64,000 nucleotides of DNA from NCBI GenBank assembly GCA_964478715.1, contig CAYZIY010000005.1, positions 19,832 to 83,831 on the forward strand, in the 5' to 3' direction. How positions within the stretch are numbered: position 1 is the first letter of the stretch; the number at the start of each line of letters is the position of its first letter. Position numbers and translations under genes: made by a program. Under the pieces are notes generated by a model, which saw nothing but the letters and a program-made list of their open reading frames with translations, was not told where the DNA came from and searched no databases. This DNA is from an uncultured Planctomycetales bacterium. Its GTDB lineage: Bacteria > Omnitrophota > Gorgyraeia > Zapsychrales > JBDRMG01. Shown in pieces: positions 3,008-37,123 of the stretch.

Positions 3008-4429
3008 ATGAGAAAGAAAAAAGTGAAGGTTGCTGTCATTGGCGCCGGCACAGCCGGGCTTTCGGCTCTTCGCGAGGTTTTCAAAAAGACCAAAGATGCG
3101 GTGCTGATTAACGGCGGGTCTTACGGAACAACCTGCGCGCGGGTCGGATGTATGCCTTCTAAGGTGTTGATTCAGGCAGCTGATGATTTTGACCGCAGAA
3201 GATTATTTGCCCAGAAAGGAATCAGGGGAACAAAGGATCTTCGTCTAAATACCAGGAAACTGATGGATCATGTGCGCTGTAGGCGAGACTATTTTACCTC
3301 AGGTGTTTTAAAGACCATCCGGAAAATTGGTCAACGAAATCTTAAAGGATATGCTCGTTTTATTCATCCTCGCCTGCTTGATGTGGATGGACAGCGAGTC
3401 AAAGCTGATGCGATGATTATCGCAACCGGCTCCTCTCCTGTGATCCCGTCACGCTGGAAGTCACTAGAGAAGCATCTGATCACAACGGATAATTTCTTTG
3501 AACTCAAAAGTCTATCGGATCACATGTCTTTGATCGGTGCTGGAGCCATCGGTCTGGAAATCGGACAGGCCCTTTCCGGTCTAGGAATTAAGGTGGATCT
3601 TATTGAGGCTTCCGGATCGATCGGAGGCTTAAGTGATCCTGAAGTCAATCGAATGGCGTGTAAATATTTTGAGAGTAAGATGAATTTGCATCTTAACACT
3701 CAAGCGGATTTATCCTTAGAACAAGAAAAGGTTGTTATTCGTCTCAATAGCAAAACACTTAAAAGAGACAATGTTTTCTTAACGATGGGTCGGATGCCCA
3801 ATATCGATAAGCTGGAACTTGAGAATCTTCATGTGAGGCTCAACGAGAAAGGTCTGCCTCATGTTAATCCCCACACCTTGCAGGTGGGTTCTTTGCCTGT
3901 TTTTATGGCCGGAGATGTCAATGGAGACCGTCCGGTTCTTCATGAGGCCGCTGATGAAGGCGTTATAGCCGGATACAATGCCTTGCGCAGAAAGCCGTAT
4001 TGCTTCAAAAGACGGGTGCCGCTTGCGATTGCGTTTACAGATCCTCAGATCGTGGTTGTCGGAAAAGGATATCACCAAGTGAAGAAAGAACCTCATAAAA
4101 TTGGTGAAGCCAGATTCGATTCTCAGGGCCGCTCTTTAATTTTGGACCGCAATACAGGCTTGCTTCGGCTCTATGTCCGACCTTCTGATGGACGGCTTTT
4201 AGGCGCCGAAATGCTTGCGCCCCACGCGGAATATATAGGGCATCTATTAGCCTGGAGTTTGCAAAACTGTCTGAGTGTTTTTGATATACTCAAACTTCCT
4301 TTTTATCATCCGACCGTTTTAGAAGGCTTAAGGAGCGCTTTAAGAGAGGTGGCCGGCAAAGTCAAGAATAGGAAACCTAGCCTGGAGCTGGCCCCCTGCG
4401 AAGAGTTGCCTGTTTCCTGTTTTAATTGA
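3008..4429 (+). CDS. class I pyridine nucleotide-disulfide oxidoreductase (dihydrolipoamide dehydrogenase family)
   Basis: FAD-binding VAVIGAGTAGLSA, redox disulfide GTTCARVGCMPSK, second Rossmann LIGAGAIGLEIGQ, and dimerisation-domain FYHPTVLEGL. An unusual C-terminal Cys pair, CEELPVSC. Confidence 0.7.
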   Translation: MRKKKVKVAVIGAGTAGLSALREVFKKTKDAVLINGGSYGTTCARVGCMPSKVLIQAADDFDRRRLFAQKGIRGTKDLRLNTRKLMDHVRCRRDYFTSGVLKTIRKIGQRNLKGYARFIHPRLLDVDGQRVKADAMIIATGSSPVIPSRWKSLEKHLITTDNFFELKSLSDHMSLIGAGAIGLEIGQALSGLGIKVDLIEASGSIGGLSDPEVNRMACKYFESKMNLHLNTQADLSLEQEKVVIRLNSKTLKRDNVFLTMGRMPNIDKLELENLHVRLNEKGLPHVNPHTLQVGSLPVFMAGDVNGDRPVLHEAADEGVIAGYNALRRKPYCFKRRVPLAIAFTDPQIVVVGKGYHQVKKEPHKIGEARFDSQGRSLILDRNTGLLRLYVRPSDGRLLGAEMLAPHAEYIGHLLAWSLQNCLSVFDILKLPFYHPTVLEGLRSALREVAGKVKNRKPSLELAPCEELPVSCFN

Positions 4430-4491
4430 TTGGGTCGATAAAGCTTGATCTGTAACCCACATGACAGAGCTTTTGATAGGAGAATGAAACA

Positions 4492-5100
4492 ATGAATAAG
4501 GATCTTTTAAGAAAAATGAAAAATTATTTCTGGACCGGCATTGCCTCATTGTTTCCTATTCTGATCACCGGATATGTTATTTATTTGATGTTTTCGATCG
4601 TTGAGAAATTCATCGGGAAACCGATCAATCATTTCTTTGTAGATCAATTCGGCTATTATCTACCGGGAATCGGTTTTGTCGTTTCTTTATTTTTGATTGT
4701 CGGAGTTGGATTTATATCGAGTTTATATGTTGGCCGTTGGTTTCAATCTTTACTGGAAAGCATATTACGGCGGATTCCAGTGATCGGAAATATTTATCCC
4801 TCGGCTAAAAAGGTATCCGAATTTCTTTTCAGCAGTGAACAGAAAAAGCAATTCAAAAAGGTAGTTCTGGTGGAATATCCCGGTAAAGGTAACTGGTCCA
4901 TAGGTTTTATTACTAATGAAAAGATCAGCGAAGAAATCATGAAAGCCCAAAAGGACGAAGTTTGCGTTTTTATCCCTCTGGCTCCGGCGCCTTTTTCGGG
5001 CTTTATTGTGATAGTGACTAGGGATCGCGTTAAAGAAATTGATCTCAGCATTGAGGAGGCCATCAAATTTGTTTTTTCCGCTGGTGTCGTAACGTCCTAA
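4492..5100 (+). CDS. DUF502-like membrane protein
   Basis: Two N-terminal TM helices followed by a soluble domain. Size and topology are typical of COG2928/DUF502. No catalytic motifs. Confidence 0.4.
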   Translation: MNKDLLRKMKNYFWTGIASLFPILITGYVIYLMFSIVEKFIGKPINHFFVDQFGYYLPGIGFVVSLFLIVGVGFISSLYVGRWFQSLLESILRRIPVIGNIYPSAKKVSEFLFSSEQKKQFKKVVLVEYPGKGNWSIGFITNEKISEEIMKAQKDEVCVFIPLAPAPFSGFIVIVTRDRVKEIDLSIEEAIKFVFSAGVVTS

Positions 5101-5125
5101 AAACACATCTCATTAAGGAAATTTT

Positions 5126-7411
5126 ATGATTAGCCGTATCAGAAATTCTTTAATCAATTATATGATTAAGAAAACGGCTCGCAATTACGGGTTTTTGGAT
5201 CCCATGAAATTATTGGGACAACTCAACCGTTTCGCCCAGCCTTCCAGCGTGTTGGTGCCTACGGAGTTATTGCGATCCGGCGCCCTGTTGCAGGCCCGGG
5301 GATTGATCAATTCTCAGGCCATTCAACATAATCTGGATTGGCTTTGGCCTTTCTGGGTTCGGCGTCAATTTGATCCCATAGATATTTCTTTTATTCCCCG
5401 AGCTTTTTCTCTAACACATATTAATTTAACGCATCGAAATTGGACCGCCATTGGTCTGCCCGGCTGTTCGCAAACGCCGATCGTTGATCCACGCGGATTA
5501 TTAACGCCCTTCTGGGATGGCTGGTCATTGGATTGCTGGATCGTTCATAAAGATAGAGAGGATTTAATTCCTTCTCAAATGAATTCGGTGGATCAAAAGA
5601 TTCACATCAATGATCAGCTGGCAGTCTCTACGTGTTTTGATCAAAAAGGTTCCCGGCTTTTAACCTGGTGTTTCGTCGAGCGCCAAGAAGGCGAATATAT
5701 CTGCCGGATGGATGTCACGGCTCAAAGTTTTCAACCGGCCTGGCTCGCTGTTTCTTTAAGGCCCTATAATCCCGAGGGGGTCAGTTTTATTCACACCATT
5801 GAGCGTCTTAAGGATATTCCGGGATGGTGCGTGAATCAAACGGATCAAATAGAGTTTTCTTGCAAGCCTCAACAATATTCTTTCTCTGATTACCGTCAAG
5901 GAGATGTTTATCATCGTCTTTTGGCTCAGCCCGATAGAAAGAAAATCAAATGCGATGTCGGCATGGCAACGGCAGCGGCTTTATTTGATTTATCCAGTGA
6001 AAAAGAAAAATCGCTGGCGATTCAGGTCCCTTTGAAATATGAAAAAACAGGAAAGGTTTCATTTCAGAAACAGAAACCCGTTATCCAAACATGGGGCGAA
6101 GCGCTAAAAGAAAGATGCGCTTTAGAGATTCCCGATCAACAAAGCAGCCGGCTCTATGAGATCGCGTTGCGGACAATGGTTTTGCATGCCTCCGATAAGC
6201 TCTATGCTGGACCGTATACATATAAACGTTTCTGGTTTCGGGATGCTGTGTTTATTTGCTATGCCTTTTTGTGCGCCGGTCTTAAGGAGAAAGCTTGGGA
6301 GATGATGAACCAGTTTGAAAGACGGCAAAAAGCAAACGGATATTTTGAATCCCAGGAAGGCGAGTGGGACAGTAACGGGCAGGTCTTGTGGCTTTTGGAA
6401 AAATATTGCCAGCTGACCGGAGAAAATCTTCCGGATTTCTGGAAAGCCATTATTAAGAAAGCGGCCAGATGGATTATCAGAAAGAGACTTGTCGATGATA
6501 TCAATGCTTTACATGCCGGTCTGATGCCTGCGGGTTTTAGCGCGGAGCACTTAGGGCCCAATGATTACTATTATTGGGATAACTTTTGGTCTGTTGCCGG
6601 ACTCCGTTATGCAGCTTCGCTGATGGAGCGTTTTCAAGAATGGGATGAGGCCAAAGGTTACCGGCAGGAAGCCGAGGCATTAATGAGTAAAATAGAAAAG
6701 AGTTTGCAGGCAGTTGCTCAACGGTTGTCGTCAAATGTTATCCCGGCTTCTATTTATCGACGGATGGACAGCGGAGCGGTGGGCTCTCTTGTTGCCGGTT
6801 ATCCGCTTCAATTATTTGGTGAAAAAGATCAGCGTTTAACCGAAACCGTTGAGTATCTTTACCGGAACTGTCTGGTGGATAAGGGATTTTTTCACGATAT
6901 GAGTCATTCGGGGATCAATCCTTATCTGACATTACACATCGCGCAGGTTATGTTGCGTGGCGGTGATATCCGGTTTTTTGATTTAATGCAGGCTATTCGC
7001 GATTTGGCTTCCGAAACGGGCCAGTGGCCGGAAGCTATTCATCCCATAACCAAAGGCGGTTGTATGGGTGATGGGCAGCATGTCTGGGCTGCCGCCGAAT
7101 GGACCTTGATGATGCGCAACTGTTTTGTCCGAGAGGATGGATGCGATCGATCATTGATTTTATGCCAAGGAATCATGCCCCAGTGGTATGCCAATCAAAG
7201 AGAAATTTCTTTTGGCTGGACTCCGACTTCTTTGGGAAACCTGAAAGTTAAACTCCAAACTTATTCGGATAAAATCATCATTAGCTGGGATGGCCGATGG
7301 CATGACAGGGAACCTTTAATCGACATCCGACTTCCCGGATTTCAGCCGGTTTTGGTGCCTTCCGGGAGCCATCAGAAAGTTATTTTCTCTCCGCAAGGAA
7401 TCGAATCATGA
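5126..7411 (+). CDS. six-hairpin (alpha/alpha)6 glycoside hydrolase-like protein (GH15/GDE_C-like)
   Basis: 761 aa, W-rich central region (WFRDAVFICYAF, GQVLWLLEKY) resembling glucoamylase/debranching-enzyme barrels. Overlaps the downstream GT4 start by 4 nt. Confidence 0.35.
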   Translation: MISRIRNSLINYMIKKTARNYGFLDPMKLLGQLNRFAQPSSVLVPTELLRSGALLQARGLINSQAIQHNLDWLWPFWVRRQFDPIDISFIPRAFSLTHINLTHRNWTAIGLPGCSQTPIVDPRGLLTPFWDGWSLDCWIVHKDREDLIPSQMNSVDQKIHINDQLAVSTCFDQKGSRLLTWCFVERQEGEYICRMDVTAQSFQPAWLAVSLRPYNPEGVSFIHTIERLKDIPGWCVNQTDQIEFSCKPQQYSFSDYRQGDVYHRLLAQPDRKKIKCDVGMATAAALFDLSSEKEKSLAIQVPLKYEKTGKVSFQKQKPVIQTWGEALKERCALEIPDQQSSRLYEIALRTMVLHASDKLYAGPYTYKRFWFRDAVFICYAFLCAGLKEKAWEMMNQFERRQKANGYFESQEGEWDSNGQVLWLLEKYCQLTGENLPDFWKAIIKKAARWIIRKRLVDDINALHAGLMPAGFSAEHLGPNDYYYWDNFWSVAGLRYAASLMERFQEWDEAKGYRQEAEALMSKIEKSLQAVAQRLSSNVIPASIYRRMDSGAVGSLVAGYPLQLFGEKDQRLTETVEYLYRNCLVDKGFFHDMSHSGINPYLTLHIAQVMLRGGDIRFFDLMQAIRDLASETGQWPEAIHPITKGGCMGDGQHVWAAAEWTLMMRNCFVREDGCDRSLILCQGIMPQWYANQREISFGWTPTSLGNLKVKLQTYSDKIIISWDGRWHDREPLIDIRLPGFQPVLVPSGSHQKVIFSPQGIES

Positions 7412-8700
7412 ATATTGTGATGATGACTAATACGTATAAACCGATCATCGGGGGTTTAGAAAGATCCGTAGAAGCATTTACCGAGTATTATCGAAAAAAA
7501 GATCATCAGGTACTTATTGTTACTCCCGAGCATCAGGAGGCCCTCGGGCACGAGGAGGGCGTGATCCGTGTTCCCGCTATCCAGCATTTCAATGGGACCG
7601 ATTTTTCTGTCGAGCTTCCGATTCATTTCACGCTTCTTAAAGAATTAGATCAGTGGAAACCGGATATTATTCATTCGCATCATCCGTTTTTGATCGGCGA
7701 TACAGCTTTACGTGCTTCGGAAAGATATCAAATTCCCATTGTTTTTACGCACCATACTCTCTTTGAACAATACACCCATTATGTGCCCGTTAAAGCCAGG
7801 GCCTTGAAAGATTTTGTTGTGGGACTAGCTGTAGGCTATGCTAATCTTTGCGATCATGTTTTCGCTCCCAGTGAAAGTATCCGGGATCTGATCAAAGAAC
7901 GCGGCATCATCAAACCTGTCAGTGTGGTCCCGACGGGAATTGAGACAGAGAAGTTTCTTAAGGGTGACGGGGAAGGTTTTCGAGAAAAATACGGAATCAG
8001 GAATGATTGTTTTCTTTGTGGTACGGTCGGTCGAGTTGCAAAAGAGAAAAATACTGATTTTTTGATGCACGCGATCGCGCGGTTTCTTAAAGACAATGAC
8101 CGGGCTGAGTTTGTTGTCGTCGGCCAGGGAGATGCTCTTAAGGGAATGAGCAACTATTTTGATAGGGAAGGTTTAAGCGAACGGTTTCATACAACTGGTT
8201 CGCTTCAAGATCAAGAGTTGGTCGATGCTTATCATGCGATGGATGTCTTCGTTTTCGCCTCTCACAGCGAAACACAGGGATTGGTTTTGATTGAAGCGAT
8301 GGCCTGCGGCGTTCCGGTTGTGGCTGTCGATGCCCCCGGTGTACGGGAAGTTTGCGAAGAGCGAGTCAACGGCCGGTTGATCAGCCGGGACAATGAGAAA
8401 GATTTCTGTGAGGCCTTGAACTGGATGGCGAATCTGGATAAGGACATTTACCTTAAGATGAAATCTTTGACCCGTCAAAAGGCCGAGGAATTTACTCAAA
8501 AGAAGGTCGCTGAGAAAGCCTTAGCTATTTATGAAGAGCTGATCTTAAGGAAATACAAAGAAAAACCTCTGGATGATAATCCCTGGAGCCGGGCTGTTGG
8601 TATGATTAAGGCAGAGCTCAAGTTGCTCCAAACCTACTCCCAGGTTTCGCAGGAGGCTATAAAAAAGAACGGTCAAAAAGAAAATCATTTCCAAGGATGA
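7408..8700 (+). CDS. glycosyltransferase family 4 (GT-B)
   Basis: Glyco_trans_4 N-terminal domain, then the GT4 C-terminal motif EAMACGVPVVAVDAPGVREV. Confidence 0.75.
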   Translation: MNIVMMTNTYKPIIGGLERSVEAFTEYYRKKDHQVLIVTPEHQEALGHEEGVIRVPAIQHFNGTDFSVELPIHFTLLKELDQWKPDIIHSHHPFLIGDTALRASERYQIPIVFTHHTLFEQYTHYVPVKARALKDFVVGLAVGYANLCDHVFAPSESIRDLIKERGIIKPVSVVPTGIETEKFLKGDGEGFREKYGIRNDCFLCGTVGRVAKEKNTDFLMHAIARFLKDNDRAEFVVVGQGDALKGMSNYFDREGLSERFHTTGSLQDQELVDAYHAMDVFVFASHSETQGLVLIEAMACGVPVVAVDAPGVREVCEERVNGRLISRDNEKDFCEALNWMANLDKDIYLKMKSLTRQKAEEFTQKKVAEKALAIYEELILRKYKEKPLDDNPWSRAVGMIKAELKLLQTYSQVSQEAIKKNGQKENHFQG

Positions 8701-9219: not shown

Positions 9220-10275
9220 TTGAATATGGAATGGAACAAACAAGTATTATTTTTTGACAGCAAACCGTACGATAAGCAGTATTTTAATCGGGCCAATGAA
9301 GGTTTTGGTTTTGACCTTCAGTATTTTGAGGGGCATCTGAGTGCTCAGACGAAGGATTTAGTCAAAGATCATCGGGCTATTTGCGTTTTTGTGAATGATC
9401 AGATTGACAAGAAAATGGTCGATTTCTTAAAGGAAAAAGGAGTCGGATTGGTTGCCTTGCGCAGCGCGGGCTATAATAATGTTGATCTCAAAGCCGCCTA
9501 TGAAAAGATTCATGTTGTCCGCGTGCCCGGTTATTCTCCCCATGCGGTGGCCGAACACGCCACGGGACTGATGCTTAGCTTGAATCGCAAGATTCATAAA
9601 GCATATTATCGAACGCGAGACAATAATTTCTCCATTAATGGACTGCTTGGATTTGATATGCACGGCAAGACTTTAGGCGTTGTGGGGACTGGCAAGATTG
9701 GCAAATGCCTCATTGCCATTGCCCAGGGTTTTGGGATGAACATTTTAGCTTATGATAAGAAAGAAAATGAAGAGTTTGCGGCAAAGCAAAATATCTCTTA
9801 CGTGGATTTGCCAGACCTGTTAAAGCAATCTGATATTGTTTCTTTGCATTGTCCCTTAAACCAAGAAACCTATCACCTGATCGATGAAGAGAAAATCTCT
9901 CAGATGAAAAAGGGAGTCATTCTGATCAACACAGGACGGGGCAAATTAATCAAGACCGAAGCTTTGATCCAGGGCTTGAAAAGCGGTCAGATCGGTTCGG
10001 CTGGGTTGGACGTTTATGAAGAAGAAAGTGAATATTTCTTTGAAGATTTTTCTAACAGCATGATTAGAGATGATCTATTGGCCCGTCTATTGACTTTTCC
10101 CAATGTGCTTGTTACCAGTCATCAGGGATTTTTTACCCGGGAAGCGCTTCAAAATATTGCCTATACGACACTTGGGAATATCAAAGAATATTTCCAGGGA
10201 GGTTATTTAAGAAACGAGATATGCTATCGGTGCGATAAGCCCTGCAAAAAGAAGAACAAAGAGCGTTGTTTTTAA
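9220..10275 (+). CDS. D-isomer-specific 2-hydroxyacid dehydrogenase (D-lactate dehydrogenase-like)
   Basis: NAD-binding LGVVGTGKIGKCLIAIAQGFGMNILAYD, with catalytic Arg/Glu/His positions conserved. Cys-rich C-terminal tail CYRCDKPCKKK. Confidence 0.75.
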   Translation: MNMEWNKQVLFFDSKPYDKQYFNRANEGFGFDLQYFEGHLSAQTKDLVKDHRAICVFVNDQIDKKMVDFLKEKGVGLVALRSAGYNNVDLKAAYEKIHVVRVPGYSPHAVAEHATGLMLSLNRKIHKAYYRTRDNNFSINGLLGFDMHGKTLGVVGTGKIGKCLIAIAQGFGMNILAYDKKENEEFAAKQNISYVDLPDLLKQSDIVSLHCPLNQETYHLIDEEKISQMKKGVILINTGRGKLIKTEALIQGLKSGQIGSAGLDVYEEESEYFFEDFSNSMIRDDLLARLLTFPNVLVTSHQGFFTREALQNIAYTTLGNIKEYFQGGYLRNEICYRCDKPCKKKNKERCF

Positions 10276-10337
10276 AAAGGCTTTTATTGTTTTTTTATAT
10301 GTGTTACAATTCTTACTCGTCGTGAAAGGAGATTTGG

Positions 10338-10514
10338 TTGACGGAATCTCGCAAAAAGATTTCCCAAAAGAAGTTAAAGGAATTCGTGAAAGAGGAATTT
10401 CTGCTTGAAGAATTTCTCCACAAGGCCCGGAAACGTTATCAAGAAATGGGAAAGCCAAAGAAAGATCCCGCGGGTCAATGGGTTCAATCCCAAGAACAAA
10501 TGAAGAAAAAATAA
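10338..10514 (+). CDS. small hypothetical Lys-rich protein (TTG start)
   Basis: SD AAGGAG 7 nt upstream of TTG. The 58-codon frame is not in the supplied ORF track. No homology recognised. Confidence 0.25.
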   Translation: MTESRKKISQKKLKEFVKEEFLLEEFLHKARKRYQEMGKPKKDPAGQWVQSQEQMKKK

Positions 10515-10582
10515 AGAAGCGGGTTGATGGCTCGCTTAAGAGGAAACATAAAAGAAAAAGATGAGATGGGAAAGGATGATTT

Positions 10583-32719: not shown

Positions 32720-32793
32720 CGGGGCGTAGCGCAGCTTGGCTAGCGCGTCTGCTTTGGGAGCAGAAGGTCCTGGGTTCAAATCCCAGCGCCCCG
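32720..32793 (+). tRNA. tRNA-Pro (anticodon TGG)
   Basis: 74 nt. 7-bp acceptor CGGGGCG/CGCCCCG. D-arm GCGC...GCGC. Anticodon stem TCTGC/GCAGA with loop TTTGGGA (TGG, G37). T-arm CTGGG-TTCAAAT-CCCAG. Discriminator A. No encoded CCA; followed by T7. Confidence 0.9.
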
Positions 32794-32846
32794 ATTTTTT
32801 TGTTATTTTGACGCTGCTTTATTTCCCTAATATTTCTTTTCGAATT

Positions 32847-33513: not shown

Positions 33514-33945
33514 GTGATGAATATGAAAAAAAAGCGCAAAGTTCTCATTATCGATGATGATCCGGAGATAATCGAAAAAATCCAAAAATGGCTTTTTTCG
33601 TCTCATTACGATGTTATGAGCGCTCTTAATGCTTCCGTCGGCATAGAACGAGCCAAGAAAAACAAGCCCGATTTAATCCTCTGCGATTTAATGCTTCCTG
33701 ATCAAGGCGGTGTGGATGTGGCTAAACTTTTGAGAGCCGATGTCGAAACACAAAATATCCCCGTTGTTTTTGTTACTGTCACAATGGGTGTTGAACTGGA
33801 CAAAGGAGATGAGACAATAGAGATTGACGGCTGGCTGTATCGAATTTTCGCCAAACCTCTCCATTCCCGAAAATTGCTTAGTGAAATTCGCAAATCTATC
33901 AATAGAAAAATTCATAAGAATATTTCACGGATTCAGGGAAGTTAA
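33514..33945 (+). CDS. single-domain response regulator (receiver only)
   Basis: KVLIIDDDPEIIEK...PDLILCDLMLPDQGG...IPVVFVT. Confidence 0.7.
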   Translation: MMNMKKKRKVLIIDDDPEIIEKIQKWLFSSHYDVMSALNASVGIERAKKNKPDLILCDLMLPDQGGVDVAKLLRADVETQNIPVVFVTVTMGVELDKGDETIEIDGWLYRIFAKPLHSRKLLSEIRKSINRKIHKNISRIQGS

Positions 33946-33967
33946 TCAAAACAATGAAGGGGTAATT

Positions 33968-34846
33968 ATGGGAAAGAAGATTTTAGTCGTTGATGACGAG
34001 CAGGATCTTTTAATGATGGTGGAGACGCGGCTTTCGGCCAACGGCTATGAGGTTGTTACTGCCGAAAACGGTCTTCAGGGGCTTGAGAAAGTATCACAAG
34101 CAAAGCCCGATCTGATCATTTCCGATGTTTTGATGCCGGAAATGGACGGCTTCGCTTTTTATAAAGAATTGAAAAACAAAGAAGAAACCAAGAGCATTCC
34201 GGTTTTGATTTTAACGGCCCGCGGAAAGATGCGCGATACGTTTATGACTATCGGGGTCGATGATTTTTTGGCTAAACCTTTTCAGCCGGAAGAATTGCTG
34301 GGCAAAGTCAGCGCTCTTCTTAGTCTCAGTGCTGCTGAGGTAACTCAGGCCCAGGAGTCTGCCTCGGTTTCTAAGGATAATCAATCCGAGAAACCTGCCG
34401 AAAAAAGAGAAGAAAAACCGGTGGCTCCGTCGGCTTCCGAAATTTTTAAAATTCTTATTGTAGCCAGCACTCCGGAGATTGCCCAGAGAGTGACAAAGCA
34501 GCTTAGCGAGAAGAACTGTGAGATTCAGTCCGTGACCAAGGGGGGGGAGGCCTCTGCCAAGGCACAAGAAATCAGTCCGAATCTTATTCTGATGGAAGTC
34601 CATCTGGATGATCAGCCCGCCAAGAACGCTATTGCCAAAATCCGGCGGGTGATGGCCTTAAAGAAGACACCCATTGCGCTTTTCAGCTATTTAGATAAAA
34701 CGCAAAACAATGGAGAATCTATTCATCAAAAGCAAATCCAAATCGACGGTGAAAGAAAGACTGCTTTGGATGCCGGGGGTACAGAATTTTTGGGATGTCT
34801 TAATGAGGTCTCTTTTGCAAAAGGTCTAAGAAAATATCTCCCTTAG
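33968..34846 (+). CDS. tandem-receiver response regulator (REC + degenerate REC, no output domain)
   Basis: MGKKILVVDDEQDLLMMV...PDLIISDVLMPEMDGF...IPVLILTA after the SD GAAGGGG. Second REC-like region ILIVASTPEIAQRV...PNLILMEVHLDD. The ORF-track start at 33824 is probably too far 5'. Confidence 0.7.
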   Translation: MGKKILVVDDEQDLLMMVETRLSANGYEVVTAENGLQGLEKVSQAKPDLIISDVLMPEMDGFAFYKELKNKEETKSIPVLILTARGKMRDTFMTIGVDDFLAKPFQPEELLGKVSALLSLSAAEVTQAQESASVSKDNQSEKPAEKREEKPVAPSASEIFKILIVASTPEIAQRVTKQLSEKNCEIQSVTKGGEASAKAQEISPNLILMEVHLDDQPAKNAIAKIRRVMALKKTPIALFSYLDKTQNNGESIHQKQIQIDGERKTALDAGGTEFLGCLNEVSFAKGLRKYLP

Positions 34847-34892
34847 GTTTTATGTAAGACGCTTTGTCCTGCCTTAAAAAAATCCATTGAAA

Positions 34893-34910
34893 ACCACACA
34901 TATGTGTGGT
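34893..34910 (+). promoter_or_regulatory. 18-bp perfect palindrome ACCACACATATGTGTGGT (candidate operator) abutting a TATTAT -10-like hexamer
   Basis: Exact reverse-complement symmetry read directly from the sequence. Lies ~55 nt upstream of the small ORF that precedes dinB. Confidence 0.5.
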
Positions 34911-34962
34911 ATTATTCCTCTACCCCTGAAGAGTCTTTTTTAACATAGGAGGAGAGGATCGT

Positions 34963-35250
34963 ATGTTTTCCCGCAATGCCCGCTGGGATCGGCATCTTCC
35001 CCATGAAAGCCATCACGAAAAATCCATTGAAGTCGGCGTCATTTTCAAAAACGGGAAACTCTATCCGCGCTGGTTTATCTGGCAAAGTCGCAAGTACATC
35101 ATCAAGGAAGTGACCTATGAATGGAAAGACAAAAAGGGTGATGAGATATTGCATTGCTTTTCTGTCAGCGATGGAGCCAACCTCTATCATATTCATTTCA
35201 ATCATAAATGGGTTCACTGGAGGCTTAAGAAGATATGTCCGATCGAGTGA
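34963..35250 (+). CDS. hypothetical His/Trp-rich small protein, translationally coupled to dinB
   Basis: 95 aa, with SD GGAGGAGAGG upstream. Motifs HLPHESHHEK and HIHFNHKWVHW. Its 3' end overlaps dinB by 16 nt. Confidence 0.45.
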   Translation: MFSRNARWDRHLPHESHHEKSIEVGVIFKNGKLYPRWFIWQSRKYIIKEVTYEWKDKKGDEILHCFSVSDGANLYHIHFNHKWVHWRLKKICPIE

Positions 35251-36407
35251 TGCATATCGATATGGATGCGTTTTTTGCCTCTATTGAACAGCAGGTTAAT
35301 CCGGCCTTGCGCGGCAAACCGGTGGTGGTGGGAGGCCGCAACAATAAATATCGTTCCATTATTTGCGCAGCCTCTTATGAGGCCAAGGCGCTGGGGATCA
35401 ATTCAACGATGCCATCCTGGAAGGCATTTCGAATTTGTCCTGAGGTTGTCTTTGTTCCTGCGGATACCGCCAAATATCTTTATACGTCTGAGGAAATTTT
35501 CTATCTTTTGGAAGAATTCAGCCCGAGAGTGGAAGCCTATTCGGTGGATGAGTTTTTTGTCGACATCATGCACTGTGAACGATTTTTTAAATCAGAGAAA
35601 GAGATGGGCCAAAAGATCAAAGAGCGTATTAAAGAACGCTTTGGCATTACCTGCTCGGTCGGCATTGCTCCGACGAGAATAACCGCCAAATTGGCCGCCA
35701 AGCTGGGAAAGCCGGATGGGCTTGTCTCGCTTGATTATGCAAAAGCCAAAGAGGTTTTGAAATCTCTTTCTGTTGAAAAAATATGCGGTATCGGACCGCG
35801 GTTAAAACGGCGATTTTCTTCACTTGGCATTGAAACATGCGGGCAGCTTGCAGAATATCCGGATGCGGTCCTTAAAGAGCATTTTGGGGTAGTTGGGCTT
35901 TGGCTGAAATCATCCTGCCTGATAGAAGATACGGTAAGTTGCTCGTATTTCCAAAAAGCGCCTGATACCCCCAAGTCGGTGGGGCATTCACAAACTTTAA
36001 AAAGAGCTTGTGCCGATCAGGAATATATCAAAAACTGGATGTATCTTCTCTCTGAAATGATTGCCGGGCGTCTGAGGCATTTGCAAAGGCAGGGGCGCAC
36101 CATATTTTTTTATTTCAGTTCAGATTTCCATCAGGGGTGCGCCCGTCAAAAAACATTTCAGGAACCCACCTATGATGGCTATGAGATTTATCAAAGAGTC
36201 CTCAAAGTTCTTCAAGAAATGAATGTTAATGAGCTGATCGTGCGCGTTTTGGGAATCAATGTCTCGAATCTGTGTGAGGCCAACAATCGCTATCTTTTTC
36301 AAAGGCAGAAAAAAAGGGAAAGGCTGCTTCAGGAGATCGATCACATTAATGATCGCTTCGGATCTTGGACCATCTGCCCGGCTGCACTCAAAAATGCGGA
36401 GCATTAA
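35235..36407 (+). CDS. dinB: DNA polymerase IV (Y-family)
   Basis: HIDMDAFFASIEQQVNPALRGKPVVVGG, SIICAASYEAKALGI, and the little-finger domain. Confidence 0.9.
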   Translation: MSDRVMHIDMDAFFASIEQQVNPALRGKPVVVGGRNNKYRSIICAASYEAKALGINSTMPSWKAFRICPEVVFVPADTAKYLYTSEEIFYLLEEFSPRVEAYSVDEFFVDIMHCERFFKSEKEMGQKIKERIKERFGITCSVGIAPTRITAKLAAKLGKPDGLVSLDYAKAKEVLKSLSVEKICGIGPRLKRRFSSLGIETCGQLAEYPDAVLKEHFGVVGLWLKSSCLIEDTVSCSYFQKAPDTPKSVGHSQTLKRACADQEYIKNWMYLLSEMIAGRLRHLQRQGRTIFFYFSSDFHQGCARQKTFQEPTYDGYEIYQRVLKVLQEMNVNELIVRVLGINVSNLCEANNRYLFQRQKKRERLLQEIDHINDRFGSWTICPAALKNAEH

Positions 36408-36463
36408 TTTTGCAAGCCATATTCCTTCTTGCCCAAAAGGACAACACGCATTATGATAAGGCC

Positions 36464-37123
36464 ATGTGTGGACGGATCACATTCACAGAAACAGACGGAG
36501 GGCAGCTTAAGGAGCGGTTCCAACTCAAAAAACTGCCTGAAAATCTTCAACCTCGGTATAATATTGCTCCGTCTCAAAATATTCCTGCGATTCTAAACAC
36601 ATTTCCTAACGAGTTAAAAATGGTTCGTTGGGGTCTTATTCCCAGTTGGGCTGAGGATGAAAAGCTAAGTTTTAAAATGATCAATGCCCGCGCCGAGACC
36701 ATTTTTGACAAGCCTGCTTATCGGAGTGCGATTCGCAGGCGCCGCTGTCTGATTCTTGCCGATTCATTTTTCGAATGGCAAAAGACAAATGGAAAAAAAC
36801 AGCCTTACCGCATTATCCTTAAAGATCAAAATCTTTTTGCCCTGGCCGGCATTTGGGATGTCTGGAAAAAAAACGGTCAGGACATTCCCACCTGTTCTAT
36901 TATTACCACCTCTCCCAATACTTTTATGCGCGAATTTCACGATCGTATGCCGGTGATTCTTGAGAAAGACAAAGAGCGGGAATGGTTAAGCGACATGGCC
37001 CCCAATGGTATTGCGGAATTCCTTAAGCCCTACCGATTTGATAACTTGCAAGCTTATCAAGTTGGCCTGGCAGTCAATTCTCCGGCCATAGATACGCCGG
37101 ATGTGATCCGCCTCCTTGAATGA
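36464..37123 (+). CDS. SOS-response-associated peptidase (SRAP/YedK family; abasic-site sensor)
   Basis: Starts MCGRITF (Cys2 nucleophile). Internal RYNIAPSQNIPAI, WGLIPSW and the H-containing motif FHDRMPVIL. The ORF-track start at 36365 is probably too far 5'. Confidence 0.8.
   Translation: MCGRITFTETDGGQLKERFQLKKLPENLQPRYNIAPSQNIPAILNTFPNELKMVRWGLIPSWAEDEKLSFKMINARAETIFDKPAYRSAIRRRRCLILADSFFEWQKTNGKKQPYRIILKDQNLFALAGIWDVWKKNGQDIPTCSIITTSPNTFMREFHDRMPVILEKDKEREWLSDMAPNGIAEFLKPYRFDNLQAYQVGLAVNSPAIDTPDVIRLLE

Follow-up and report, generated by a model that had tools for sequence, protein, structure and literature searches.

The DNA analysed here is a stretch of 64,000 nucleotides (nt; hereafter the window) from an uncultured bacterium of the phylum Omnitrophota (contig CAYZIY010000005.1, positions 19,832 to 83,831). 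It carries a gene cluster, imuB-C-dinB-srap, that is very probably a LexA-repressed (SOS) operon, a compact lesion-tolerance module. A palindromic operator, a small open reading frame (ORF), DinB and a protein of the SRAP family had been pointed out in an earlier note made from the letters of this DNA, and all four are present. Comparison with related genomes, by which the parts were identified, the operon was found to be conserved and the operator was assigned, confirmed the operator, DinB and SRAP as elements of an SOS-type damage-tolerance operon. The small ORF, which the note was unable to place in any family, encodes a protein of 95 amino acids (aa) that is best classified as a divergent standalone member of ImuB-C (GSU0042-like, related to Pfam DUF6504). 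The arrangement is a further example of the published lexA-imuB-C-polY cassette type, in which polY is the gene of a Y-family polymerase (PolY).

The operator consists of a perfect 16-bp palindrome core, CCACACATATGTGTGG, at 34894-34909, which extends with its flanks to 18 bp. It is unique in the window at up to three mismatches, where 0.05 occurrences are expected by chance, and the promoter hexamers around it match the sigma-70 consensus at 10 of 12 positions, plus TG. Comparative genomics points to a LexA operator, because the palindrome occupies a promoter position before lexA or dinB in relatives and co-varies with the recognition helix of LexA; the earlier proposal of an operator was upheld.

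Relatives were collected by searching genomes, one for each species, for the N-terminal motif that marks the long form of the small protein. This survey is biased toward proteins with that motif; only the alignment of long forms gave a usable conserved stretch. All 25 loci obtained belong to metagenome-assembled genomes (MAGs) of Candidatus Omnitrophota, four of them labelled ‘uncultured Planctomycetia’. The box was found in the same promoter position at about 19 of the 25, with the architecture TTGACA ... GGTATAAT. In the closest relative, metagenome contig L001, TTGACA-ACCACACATTTGTGTGGT-ATAAAT stands directly before lexA-small ORF-dinB, and five loci (L007-L011) carry a symmetric variant, ACCATAA-N4-TTATGGT. 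A weight matrix derived from the sites of these loci was run over 334 kb of loci plus the window, and strong sites were located only at the operon promoters. An extra strong copy was present only in L020 and L022; it lies before imuB-C, which is set apart from lexA by a gap. The two boxes of each of these loci are identical (at 1160 and 1807 in L020, at 5165 and 5887 in L022). It appears that lexA and imuB-C-dinB each own an operator when they are uncoupled, and the window follows the same logic.

When a metagenome collection was scanned for exact matches to ACCACACAAATGTGTGGT, at least 120 contigs were found to carry it. Among the 120 matches listed, the box lies no more than 150 nt upstream of lexA in 59 and of dinB in 23. 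At least 11 more of the listed contigs have another gene (Bro-N/DinD-like, DUF3800 or NYN) inserted first; these are possibly extra members of the SOS regulon or mobile insertions. Examples are Bro-N in L115, L139, L148 and L072, DUF3800 in L106 and NYN in L111, with lexA after the inserted gene. Most of the other listed contigs look like chance matches or terminator hairpins in AT-rich DNA. The same 18-mer was also seen right upstream of dinB without imuB-C in L039, L040, L044, L047, L053, L058, L083, L108, L121 and others, with a GC content of 0.53-0.62; these contigs are not from the same clade, because the Omnitrophota loci have 37-47% GC. Three contigs of still higher GC (L138, L141 and L142, 0.63-0.67) have a short-form imuB-C together with lexA and/or dinB. 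The fetched contig of another organism closest to the window in composition (L137, tetranucleotide r 0.94) has the box at 10579, about 118 nt upstream of dinB (9316-10461, minus strand), and no imuB-C was detected between the two.

The sequence of the box follows that of the repressor. All loci with a CACAC box encode a LexA with the recognition helix F[SK]STGTVRD[YH]L, and the CATAA-box loci (L007-L011) a LexA with KA[IV]GTVQDHL. Elusimicrobiota, WOR-1, Nitrospiria and Brocadiales have other LexA helices and other palindromes of 16-18 bp, in which an AC-N4-GT core is kept. The palindromes located before lexA in L151, L152, L153 and L155 are ATGGTACAAACGTACCAT (Brocadiales), TTAGCACATTTGTGCTAA (Elusimicrobiota), GTATACACTTGTATAC (WOR-1) and GGTCTACAAATGTAGACC (Nitrospiria). 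No description of a CCACAC-N4-GTGTGG LexA box was found in the searchable literature, which points weakly to novelty.

The ImuB-C superfamily was defined from Geobacter GSU0042 by Aravind, Anand & Iyer (2013), who described an all-beta domain some 80 residues long whose C-terminal Trp is conserved; the domain is also found as the C-terminus of ImuB (hidden Markov model E ~1e-4 to 1e-5) (PMC3765255). Standalone members were reported to be paired mostly with DinB and often with LexA and SRAP too, and the damage-inducible Geobacter operon of Jara et al. (2003) was cited in this context (PMC3765255). The arrangement lexA-imuB-C-polY was described by Timinskas & Venclovas in 2019 (PMC6511836) and extended in 2026, when ImuB-C was presented as having a novel beta-barrel fold and as a regulatory subunit that putatively binds PolY (PMC12926913). 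The linkage of the family to DinB, LexA and SRAP has accordingly been in print since 2013 (PMC3765255, PMC6511836, PMC12926913), and the small ORF is not the novel DinB accessory factor that the earlier note had considered.

Membership of the window protein was established mainly through its homologues. A word-indexed search with the single protein as query yielded an identical protein and one homologue at 61% identity and no more; an exhaustive profile search yielded 569 cluster representatives at E<1e-3, 114 of them at E<1e-10. When a profile of 133 family members was compared by hhalign with the 84-aa product of the gene that lies between lexA and dinB on plasmid pSD of Geobacter anodireducens, the two matched with a probability of 99.7% (E 1.5e-25), and tblastn with a family member reached the same protein (L029, 4001-4252) at 4e-11. 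This plasmid protein is a homologue of the ImuB-C prototype GSU0042, not GSU0042 itself. Pfam DUF6504 (PF20114) is matched by 76 of the 133 members at E<0.01 (best 8.7e-9); the window protein is related to this model (19.6 bits, E 1.1e-3, residues 32-57 only) and lies outside its threshold. A literature search on DUF6504 found no paper. No ImuB was found among the homologues of the small ORF, the best 150 and the best 120 matches all being small proteins, nor by tblastn of DinB against plasmids, which gave UmuC and DinB genes only.

Most of the homologues are about 82 aa long and align to query residues 18-92. Roughly one in four of the close homologues is a long form of some 95 aa with an extra N-terminal peptide, MFNPxARWDR. 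Across the 133 members V24, F28, P35, F38, G59, F66 and W86 are near-invariant, a pattern that reads as a hydrophobic core; W86, the C-terminal Trp, is conserved in at least 90% of the family. An AlphaFold 2 (AF2) model computed with the family alignment as input has a predicted local distance difference test (pLDDT) of 89 overall and about 96 within residues 20-93, which form seven beta strands; the N-terminal 19 residues are of low confidence. Neither Foldseek against the PDB nor a profile search of PDB sequences revealed a relative, and for the model this agrees with the ‘novel beta-barrel’ description of ImuB-C (PMC12926913). The window protein thus has the beta domain of about 80 residues, the conserved C-terminal Trp, no catalytic residue pattern and the DinB neighbourhood that mark the family. 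The profile and structure comparisons that the earlier note had proposed have in this way given a family match by hhalign and a confident beta model.

The gene order lexA-imuB-C-dinB was observed at 22 of the 25 Omnitrophota genome loci and in L001, with genes that mostly overlap or nearly abut, and in at least 32 metagenome contigs among the matches listed. An adjacent lexA is absent from the window and from its three nearest genome relatives (L004-L006). Short-form members have lexA-imuB-C-dinB in Brocadiales and Elusimicrobiota. In WOR-1, a stretch of about 1.4 kb without a called gene comes after lexA-imuB-C and no polymerase gene was called, and in the Nitrospiria locus (L155) a radical-SAM SplB-like gene sits between imuB-C and dinB. 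The small ORF is a genuine, conserved, DinB-linked gene, and the expectation that it would be conserved upstream of dinB in relatives held. Insertions and gaps occur as well: one Omnitrophota MAG (L027) has a 359-aa gene at 6371-7450 between imuB-C and dinB, to which no family was assigned, and several other loci have non-coding gaps of 200-480 nt there.

SRAP behaves differently from this pair. Among about 60 Omnitrophota-type loci it is linked to the operon in a single lineage, that of the window, where it stands 3' of dinB (L002 and L003 are from the same organism as the window), and none was found at the other 25 genome loci or at the 120 metagenome loci of the matches listed. On the Geobacter plasmid pSD (L029, 2817-5480) the order is SRAP-lexA-imuB-C-dinB, with SRAP just upstream of lexA. 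In pSD, dinB is broken into two ORFs (4252-5118 and 5094-5480) and looks like a frameshifted pseudogene or the result of an error in sequencing, and the SRAP ORF there, listed from an internal GTG, covers model positions 73-214 only. The conserved unit is lexA-imuB-C-polY, because the same order recurs across Omnitrophota and in short-form members of other phyla; SRAP is an occasional rider, as already published. The neighbourhood survey suggested in the earlier note thus recovered the small ORF consistently next to dinB, usually with lexA. Of the proposed triplet, small ORF-dinB recurs and the third member, SRAP, is confined to the window's lineage among the Omnitrophota-type loci; in this clade the pairing of DinB with SRAP is not what is conserved.

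The polymerase was identified as DinB by its Pfam matches (IMS PF00817, 4e-50, 170 bits; IMS_C PF11799, 6e-19, 69 bits) and its catalytic motifs (D9/D11 in HIDMDAFFAS and the D/E in SVDEFF), in agreement with the earlier identification, and its active site is intact. The best NCBIfam Pol IV equivalog, NF002677, scored 255.4 against a cut-off of 256, other models falling further below theirs; the protein is a DinB-like member of the Y family without being a strict Pol IV equivalog. At 24 orthologous loci the C-terminal tail carries a [YF]LF motif directly after the little finger (RYLF at about aa 347-351 in the window), a position that presumably corresponds to the clamp-binding motif of UmuC and ImuB, and continues with a conserved L..A.D.IN.RFGDWT.YPA. 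Residues 362-386 of the window polymerase align with DUF4113 positions 1-25 (E 0.0023-0.027, under the 24-bit threshold), and 17 of 20 orthologue tails match the first 25 positions at E<0.1, also below the Pfam threshold. This N-terminal part of DUF4113 corresponds to the helix-strand motif, similar to the N-terminus of RecA, that Timinskas & Venclovas assigned to the GeoPolY-like group of polymerases (2019; PMC6511836). These tail motifs would fit a PolY that binds RecA.

The third gene matches SRAP over the full length of the model (PF02586, 7e-72, 241.8 bits, model positions 1-214 of 214), which confirms the family given in the earlier note. It contains the conserved motifs NARAE, FEW and HDRMPVIL and has 2f20, HMCES and YedK as PDB relatives. 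Its start is less certain. The ATG at 36464 gives the MCGR N-terminus described before, with an AAGG only 2 nt upstream (poor spacing); gene callers start at the TTG at 36410 (237 aa), which adds 18 residues and has a better-spaced Shine-Dalgarno sequence, GGAG, 8 nt upstream. The called extension (36410-36463) hides the MCGR N-terminus, and the sequence starting with MCGR is therefore absent from the protein collection. A start with Cys2, the N-terminal nucleophile on which the chemistry of the family depends, would be expected from what is known of the family.

The features of the locus are collected in Table 1. The small ORF, which contains both His-rich strings named in the earlier note, precedes dinB and overlaps it by 16 nt; translational coupling of imuB-C to dinB through this overlap is plausible from the sequence, as had been proposed. 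The short gap between the dinB stop codon and the SRAP ATG is present, at 56 nt and not the 57 nt stated before. The window has a GC content of 42%. Two response-regulator genes (33514-33945 and 33962-34846) lie immediately upstream, where relatives carry lexA, and a tRNA-Pro (TGG) gene is located at 32720-32794, about 2 kb upstream of the operon.

Table 1. Features of the imuB-C-dinB-srap locus, in window coordinates.
Feature	Position	Strand	Remarks
Sigma-70-type promoter	34887..34915	+	-35 TTGAAA 34887-34892; 17-nt spacer; -10 TATTAT 34910-34915; TG upstream of -10
Predicted LexA operator (SOS box), ACCACACATATGTGTGGT	34893..34910	.	Fills the promoter spacer, touches -10
Shine-Dalgarno sequence of the small ORF, AGGAGGAG	34947..34954	+	Strong; 8 nt upstream of the start; read from the sequence
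imuB-C-like gene, 95 aa	34963..35250	+	Residues 1-19 N-terminal arm (MF..ARWDRHLP), conserved and poorly ordered; 20-93 seven-strand beta domain
dinB, Y-family polymerase, 390 aa	35235..36407	+	ATG 35235; Pfam IMS + IMS_C
SRAP/YedK-family gene	36464..37123	+	Putative MCGR start; PF02586; alternative TTG start 36410

From these parts the following course of events may be proposed. As long as the DNA is undamaged, a LexA dimer, the gene of which lies elsewhere in the genome, would sit on the 18-bp palindrome and occlude RNA polymerase, because the palindrome fills the spacer between the -35 and -10 hexamers. Upon DNA damage, filaments of RecA on single-stranded DNA (ssDNA) would lead to self-cleavage of LexA and the operon would be derepressed, imuB-C, dinB and probably srap being transcribed as one unit. 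DinB would act with a tail that bears a clamp-binding-like motif and a RecA-N-terminus-like motif. The ImuB-C barrel would most likely be a non-catalytic small subunit or adaptor in a physical PolY-RecA-ImuB-C translesion complex and not a metal enzyme, and SRAP, by crosslinking to abasic sites in ssDNA, would covalently shield them at the same stalled forks.

Several observations weigh against this account. Neither lexA nor another copy of the box is present in the 64-kb window, and a search for this genome's own LexA found no repressor of the same organism. Binding of LexA to the box in Omnitrophota is predicted from sequence patterns, and the biochemical role of standalone ImuB-C is putative. 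The DUF6504 score of the small protein lies below the gathering threshold of 24.2 bits, and its homology to the true ImuB C-terminal domain rests on PMC3765255. The start of SRAP is ambiguous, and SRAP is unlinked to this operon in other Omnitrophota. The window likewise holds no recA and no uvrA. Two contigs considered as carriers of the genome's own lexA, L157 and L158 (P0276 and P0359), were rejected as coming from other organisms (tetranucleotide r 0.78 and 0.21). L158 nonetheless has TTGACA-ACCACACGCATGAGTGGT-ATAGT before a solitary lexA, a box with one mismatch in the same promoter position.

The N-terminal arm of the small protein gives room for another role. All 19 long forms have F2, R7, W8 and D9, nearly all have R10 and about 17 have P13; the arm, modelled as unstructured, is more conserved among these proteins than the barrel. 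Each of the 40 paired Omnitrophota-type loci inspected has it, and one subgroup among them repeats GFNP. Small PolY subunits that are unrelated to one another are reported to have no more than an inserted N-terminal arm in common (PMC12926913), and the small protein might by analogy be a counterpart of UmuD' or YolD, with a disordered arm that gates the polymerase cleft and a barrel that serves as anchor. This is conceivable and, on balance, less likely than not: no S24 peptidase (UmuD) or YolD-like (PF08863) domain was matched at E<0.01 in the window protein or its 133 homologues, no significant similarity to UmuD or YolD was seen, and most ImuB-C proteins (~82 aa) have no arm and are still linked to dinB.

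A role as damaged-DNA sensor, that is, as a DNA-binding domain that recruits the polymerase instead of an adaptor between PolY and RecA, was proposed by Aravind et al. 2013 (PMC3765255). The barrel has conserved positive residues (R36, R43/K44, K55 and the region of R87), and the family also occurs beside repair genes other than polymerases, such as the SplB-like gene of L155. The homologous domain of ImuB, on the other hand, was modelled, and partly shown, to contact DnaE2 and ImuA (PMC12926913), and Foldseek against the PDB gave no structural similarity to known DNA-binding folds. We regard the sensor as somewhat unlikely, a little more so than the gating arm; sensor and adaptor roles are not mutually exclusive.

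A rival reading of the palindrome takes it as intrinsic terminator hairpin of the upstream response-regulator gene, which ends at 34846. A terminator scan does list it, with a 7-bp stem, a 4-nt loop and a T-containing tail, and several of the low-GC metagenome matches to the 18-mer are flanked by A and T runs. The genomic context makes this very improbable, and the terminator was rejected: upstream genes vary in relatives and the palindrome always lies between TTGACA and a TATAAT-like hexamer before lexA or dinB, the sequence itself is conserved and not merely its pairing, the box changes together with the LexA recognition helix and is duplicated before imuB-C when lexA is apart, and the window has only a weak T tract (ATTATTCC). 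Least credible of all is the reading of the small protein as a novel accessory factor of DinB that binds metal through His, for which the window protein offers two His-rich strings and tight coupling to dinB: in two alignments none of the His residues that follow H11 and H14 is kept in the 19 closest homologues, most being gone already at 61% identity, so that the clusters that had looked metal-binding are not kept even among close relatives; the residues near-invariant across the family form a hydrophobic core pattern; no metal-binding family of Pfam was matched by the window protein or the 133 homologues; and the family was already published as ImuB-C. The idea was dropped.

The LexA-controlled operon may be set beside known systems. 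Like the lexA-imuB-C-polY cassette of Geobacter, it encodes, right upstream of an active Y-family polymerase, a small all-beta protein (about 80 residues) whose C-terminal Trp is conserved; in common are also a RecA-N-terminus-like tail on the polymerase (putative in the window), a LexA-type operator and, often, SRAP in the vicinity. It differs in that it contains SRAP and no lexA, in a conserved N-terminal extension of 17-19 residues that Geobacter and other short forms of ~82 aa do not have, in its phylum and in its operator sequence. The Geobacter LexA operator is reportedly GGTT-N2-C-N4-G-N3-ACC, as Jara and colleagues are said to have described in 2003. Like the ImuA-ImuB-DnaE2 mutasome, the window has a LexA-controlled mutagenesis cassette that combines an ImuB-C module with a Y-family protein; unlike it, the active site of the Y-family protein is intact, DnaE2 and ImuA are absent from the operon, and ImuB-C is a separate polypeptide, as in Deinococcus and unlike in ImuB.

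In Pol V (UmuD'2C-RecA) and YqjW-YqjX/YolD of Bacillus, too, the gene of a small subunit precedes that of a Y-family polymerase in an SOS-induced operon, the polymerase has a RecA-N-terminus-like tail (putative in the window) and the small subunit an unstructured N-terminal arm. Unlike in these systems, the small subunit of the window has no S24 peptidase domain, no YolD match and no sign of self-cleavage. The published model of the ImuB-C barrel is not SH3-like (PMC12926913). The SRAP protein resembles SRAP/YedK/HMCES proteins in its full-length PF02586 match, its presumed MCGR N-terminus and its position next to an SOS polymerase, as noted in 2013; it departs from a typical family member in its uncertain start codon and in a linkage to imuB-C-dinB that is not kept within Omnitrophota. 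The box has inverted half-sites, a 4-bp A/T-rich spacer and an AC-N4-GT core in common with the Gram-positive LexA box GAAC-N4-GTTC (Cheo box), and both types overlap the promoter; like the Cheo box, that of Omnitrophota would autoregulate lexA. The half-site is CCACAC in Omnitrophota and CGAAC in the Cheo box.

The main value of the analysis lies in a correction: what had looked like a mystery protein rich in His is a standalone ImuB-C, and of the modules that make up bacterial mutasomes this one is the least understood. The lexA-imuB-C-polY cassette is now also recorded for Omnitrophota, which were neither among the lineages of the 2019 survey nor mentioned in 2026 (PMC6511836, PMC12926913). 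Two details seem to be undescribed, the MFNPxARWDR N-terminal arm and the CCACAC-N4-GTGTGG LexA box with its helix co-variation. The latter provides a candidate LexA box for Omnitrophota, and the natural co-variation of helix and box is usable for studying LexA specificity. Tentatively, and in our estimate less likely than not, ImuB-C of Omnitrophota may have been remodelled into a chimeric polymerase-gating subunit, composed of the arm [M/G/S]F[NS]PxARWDRxLP and the barrel, under an undescribed ACCACAC-N4-GTGTGGT operator whose specificity tracks one Arg/Gln-containing helix. The clade-specific N-terminal peptide is a concrete handle on the role of ImuB-C beside an active Y-family polymerase. 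It could contact the polymerase, as inserted arms of the UmuD'/YolD type do; if this is true, arm and barrel together would be a chimeric regulatory subunit that tunes translesion synthesis.

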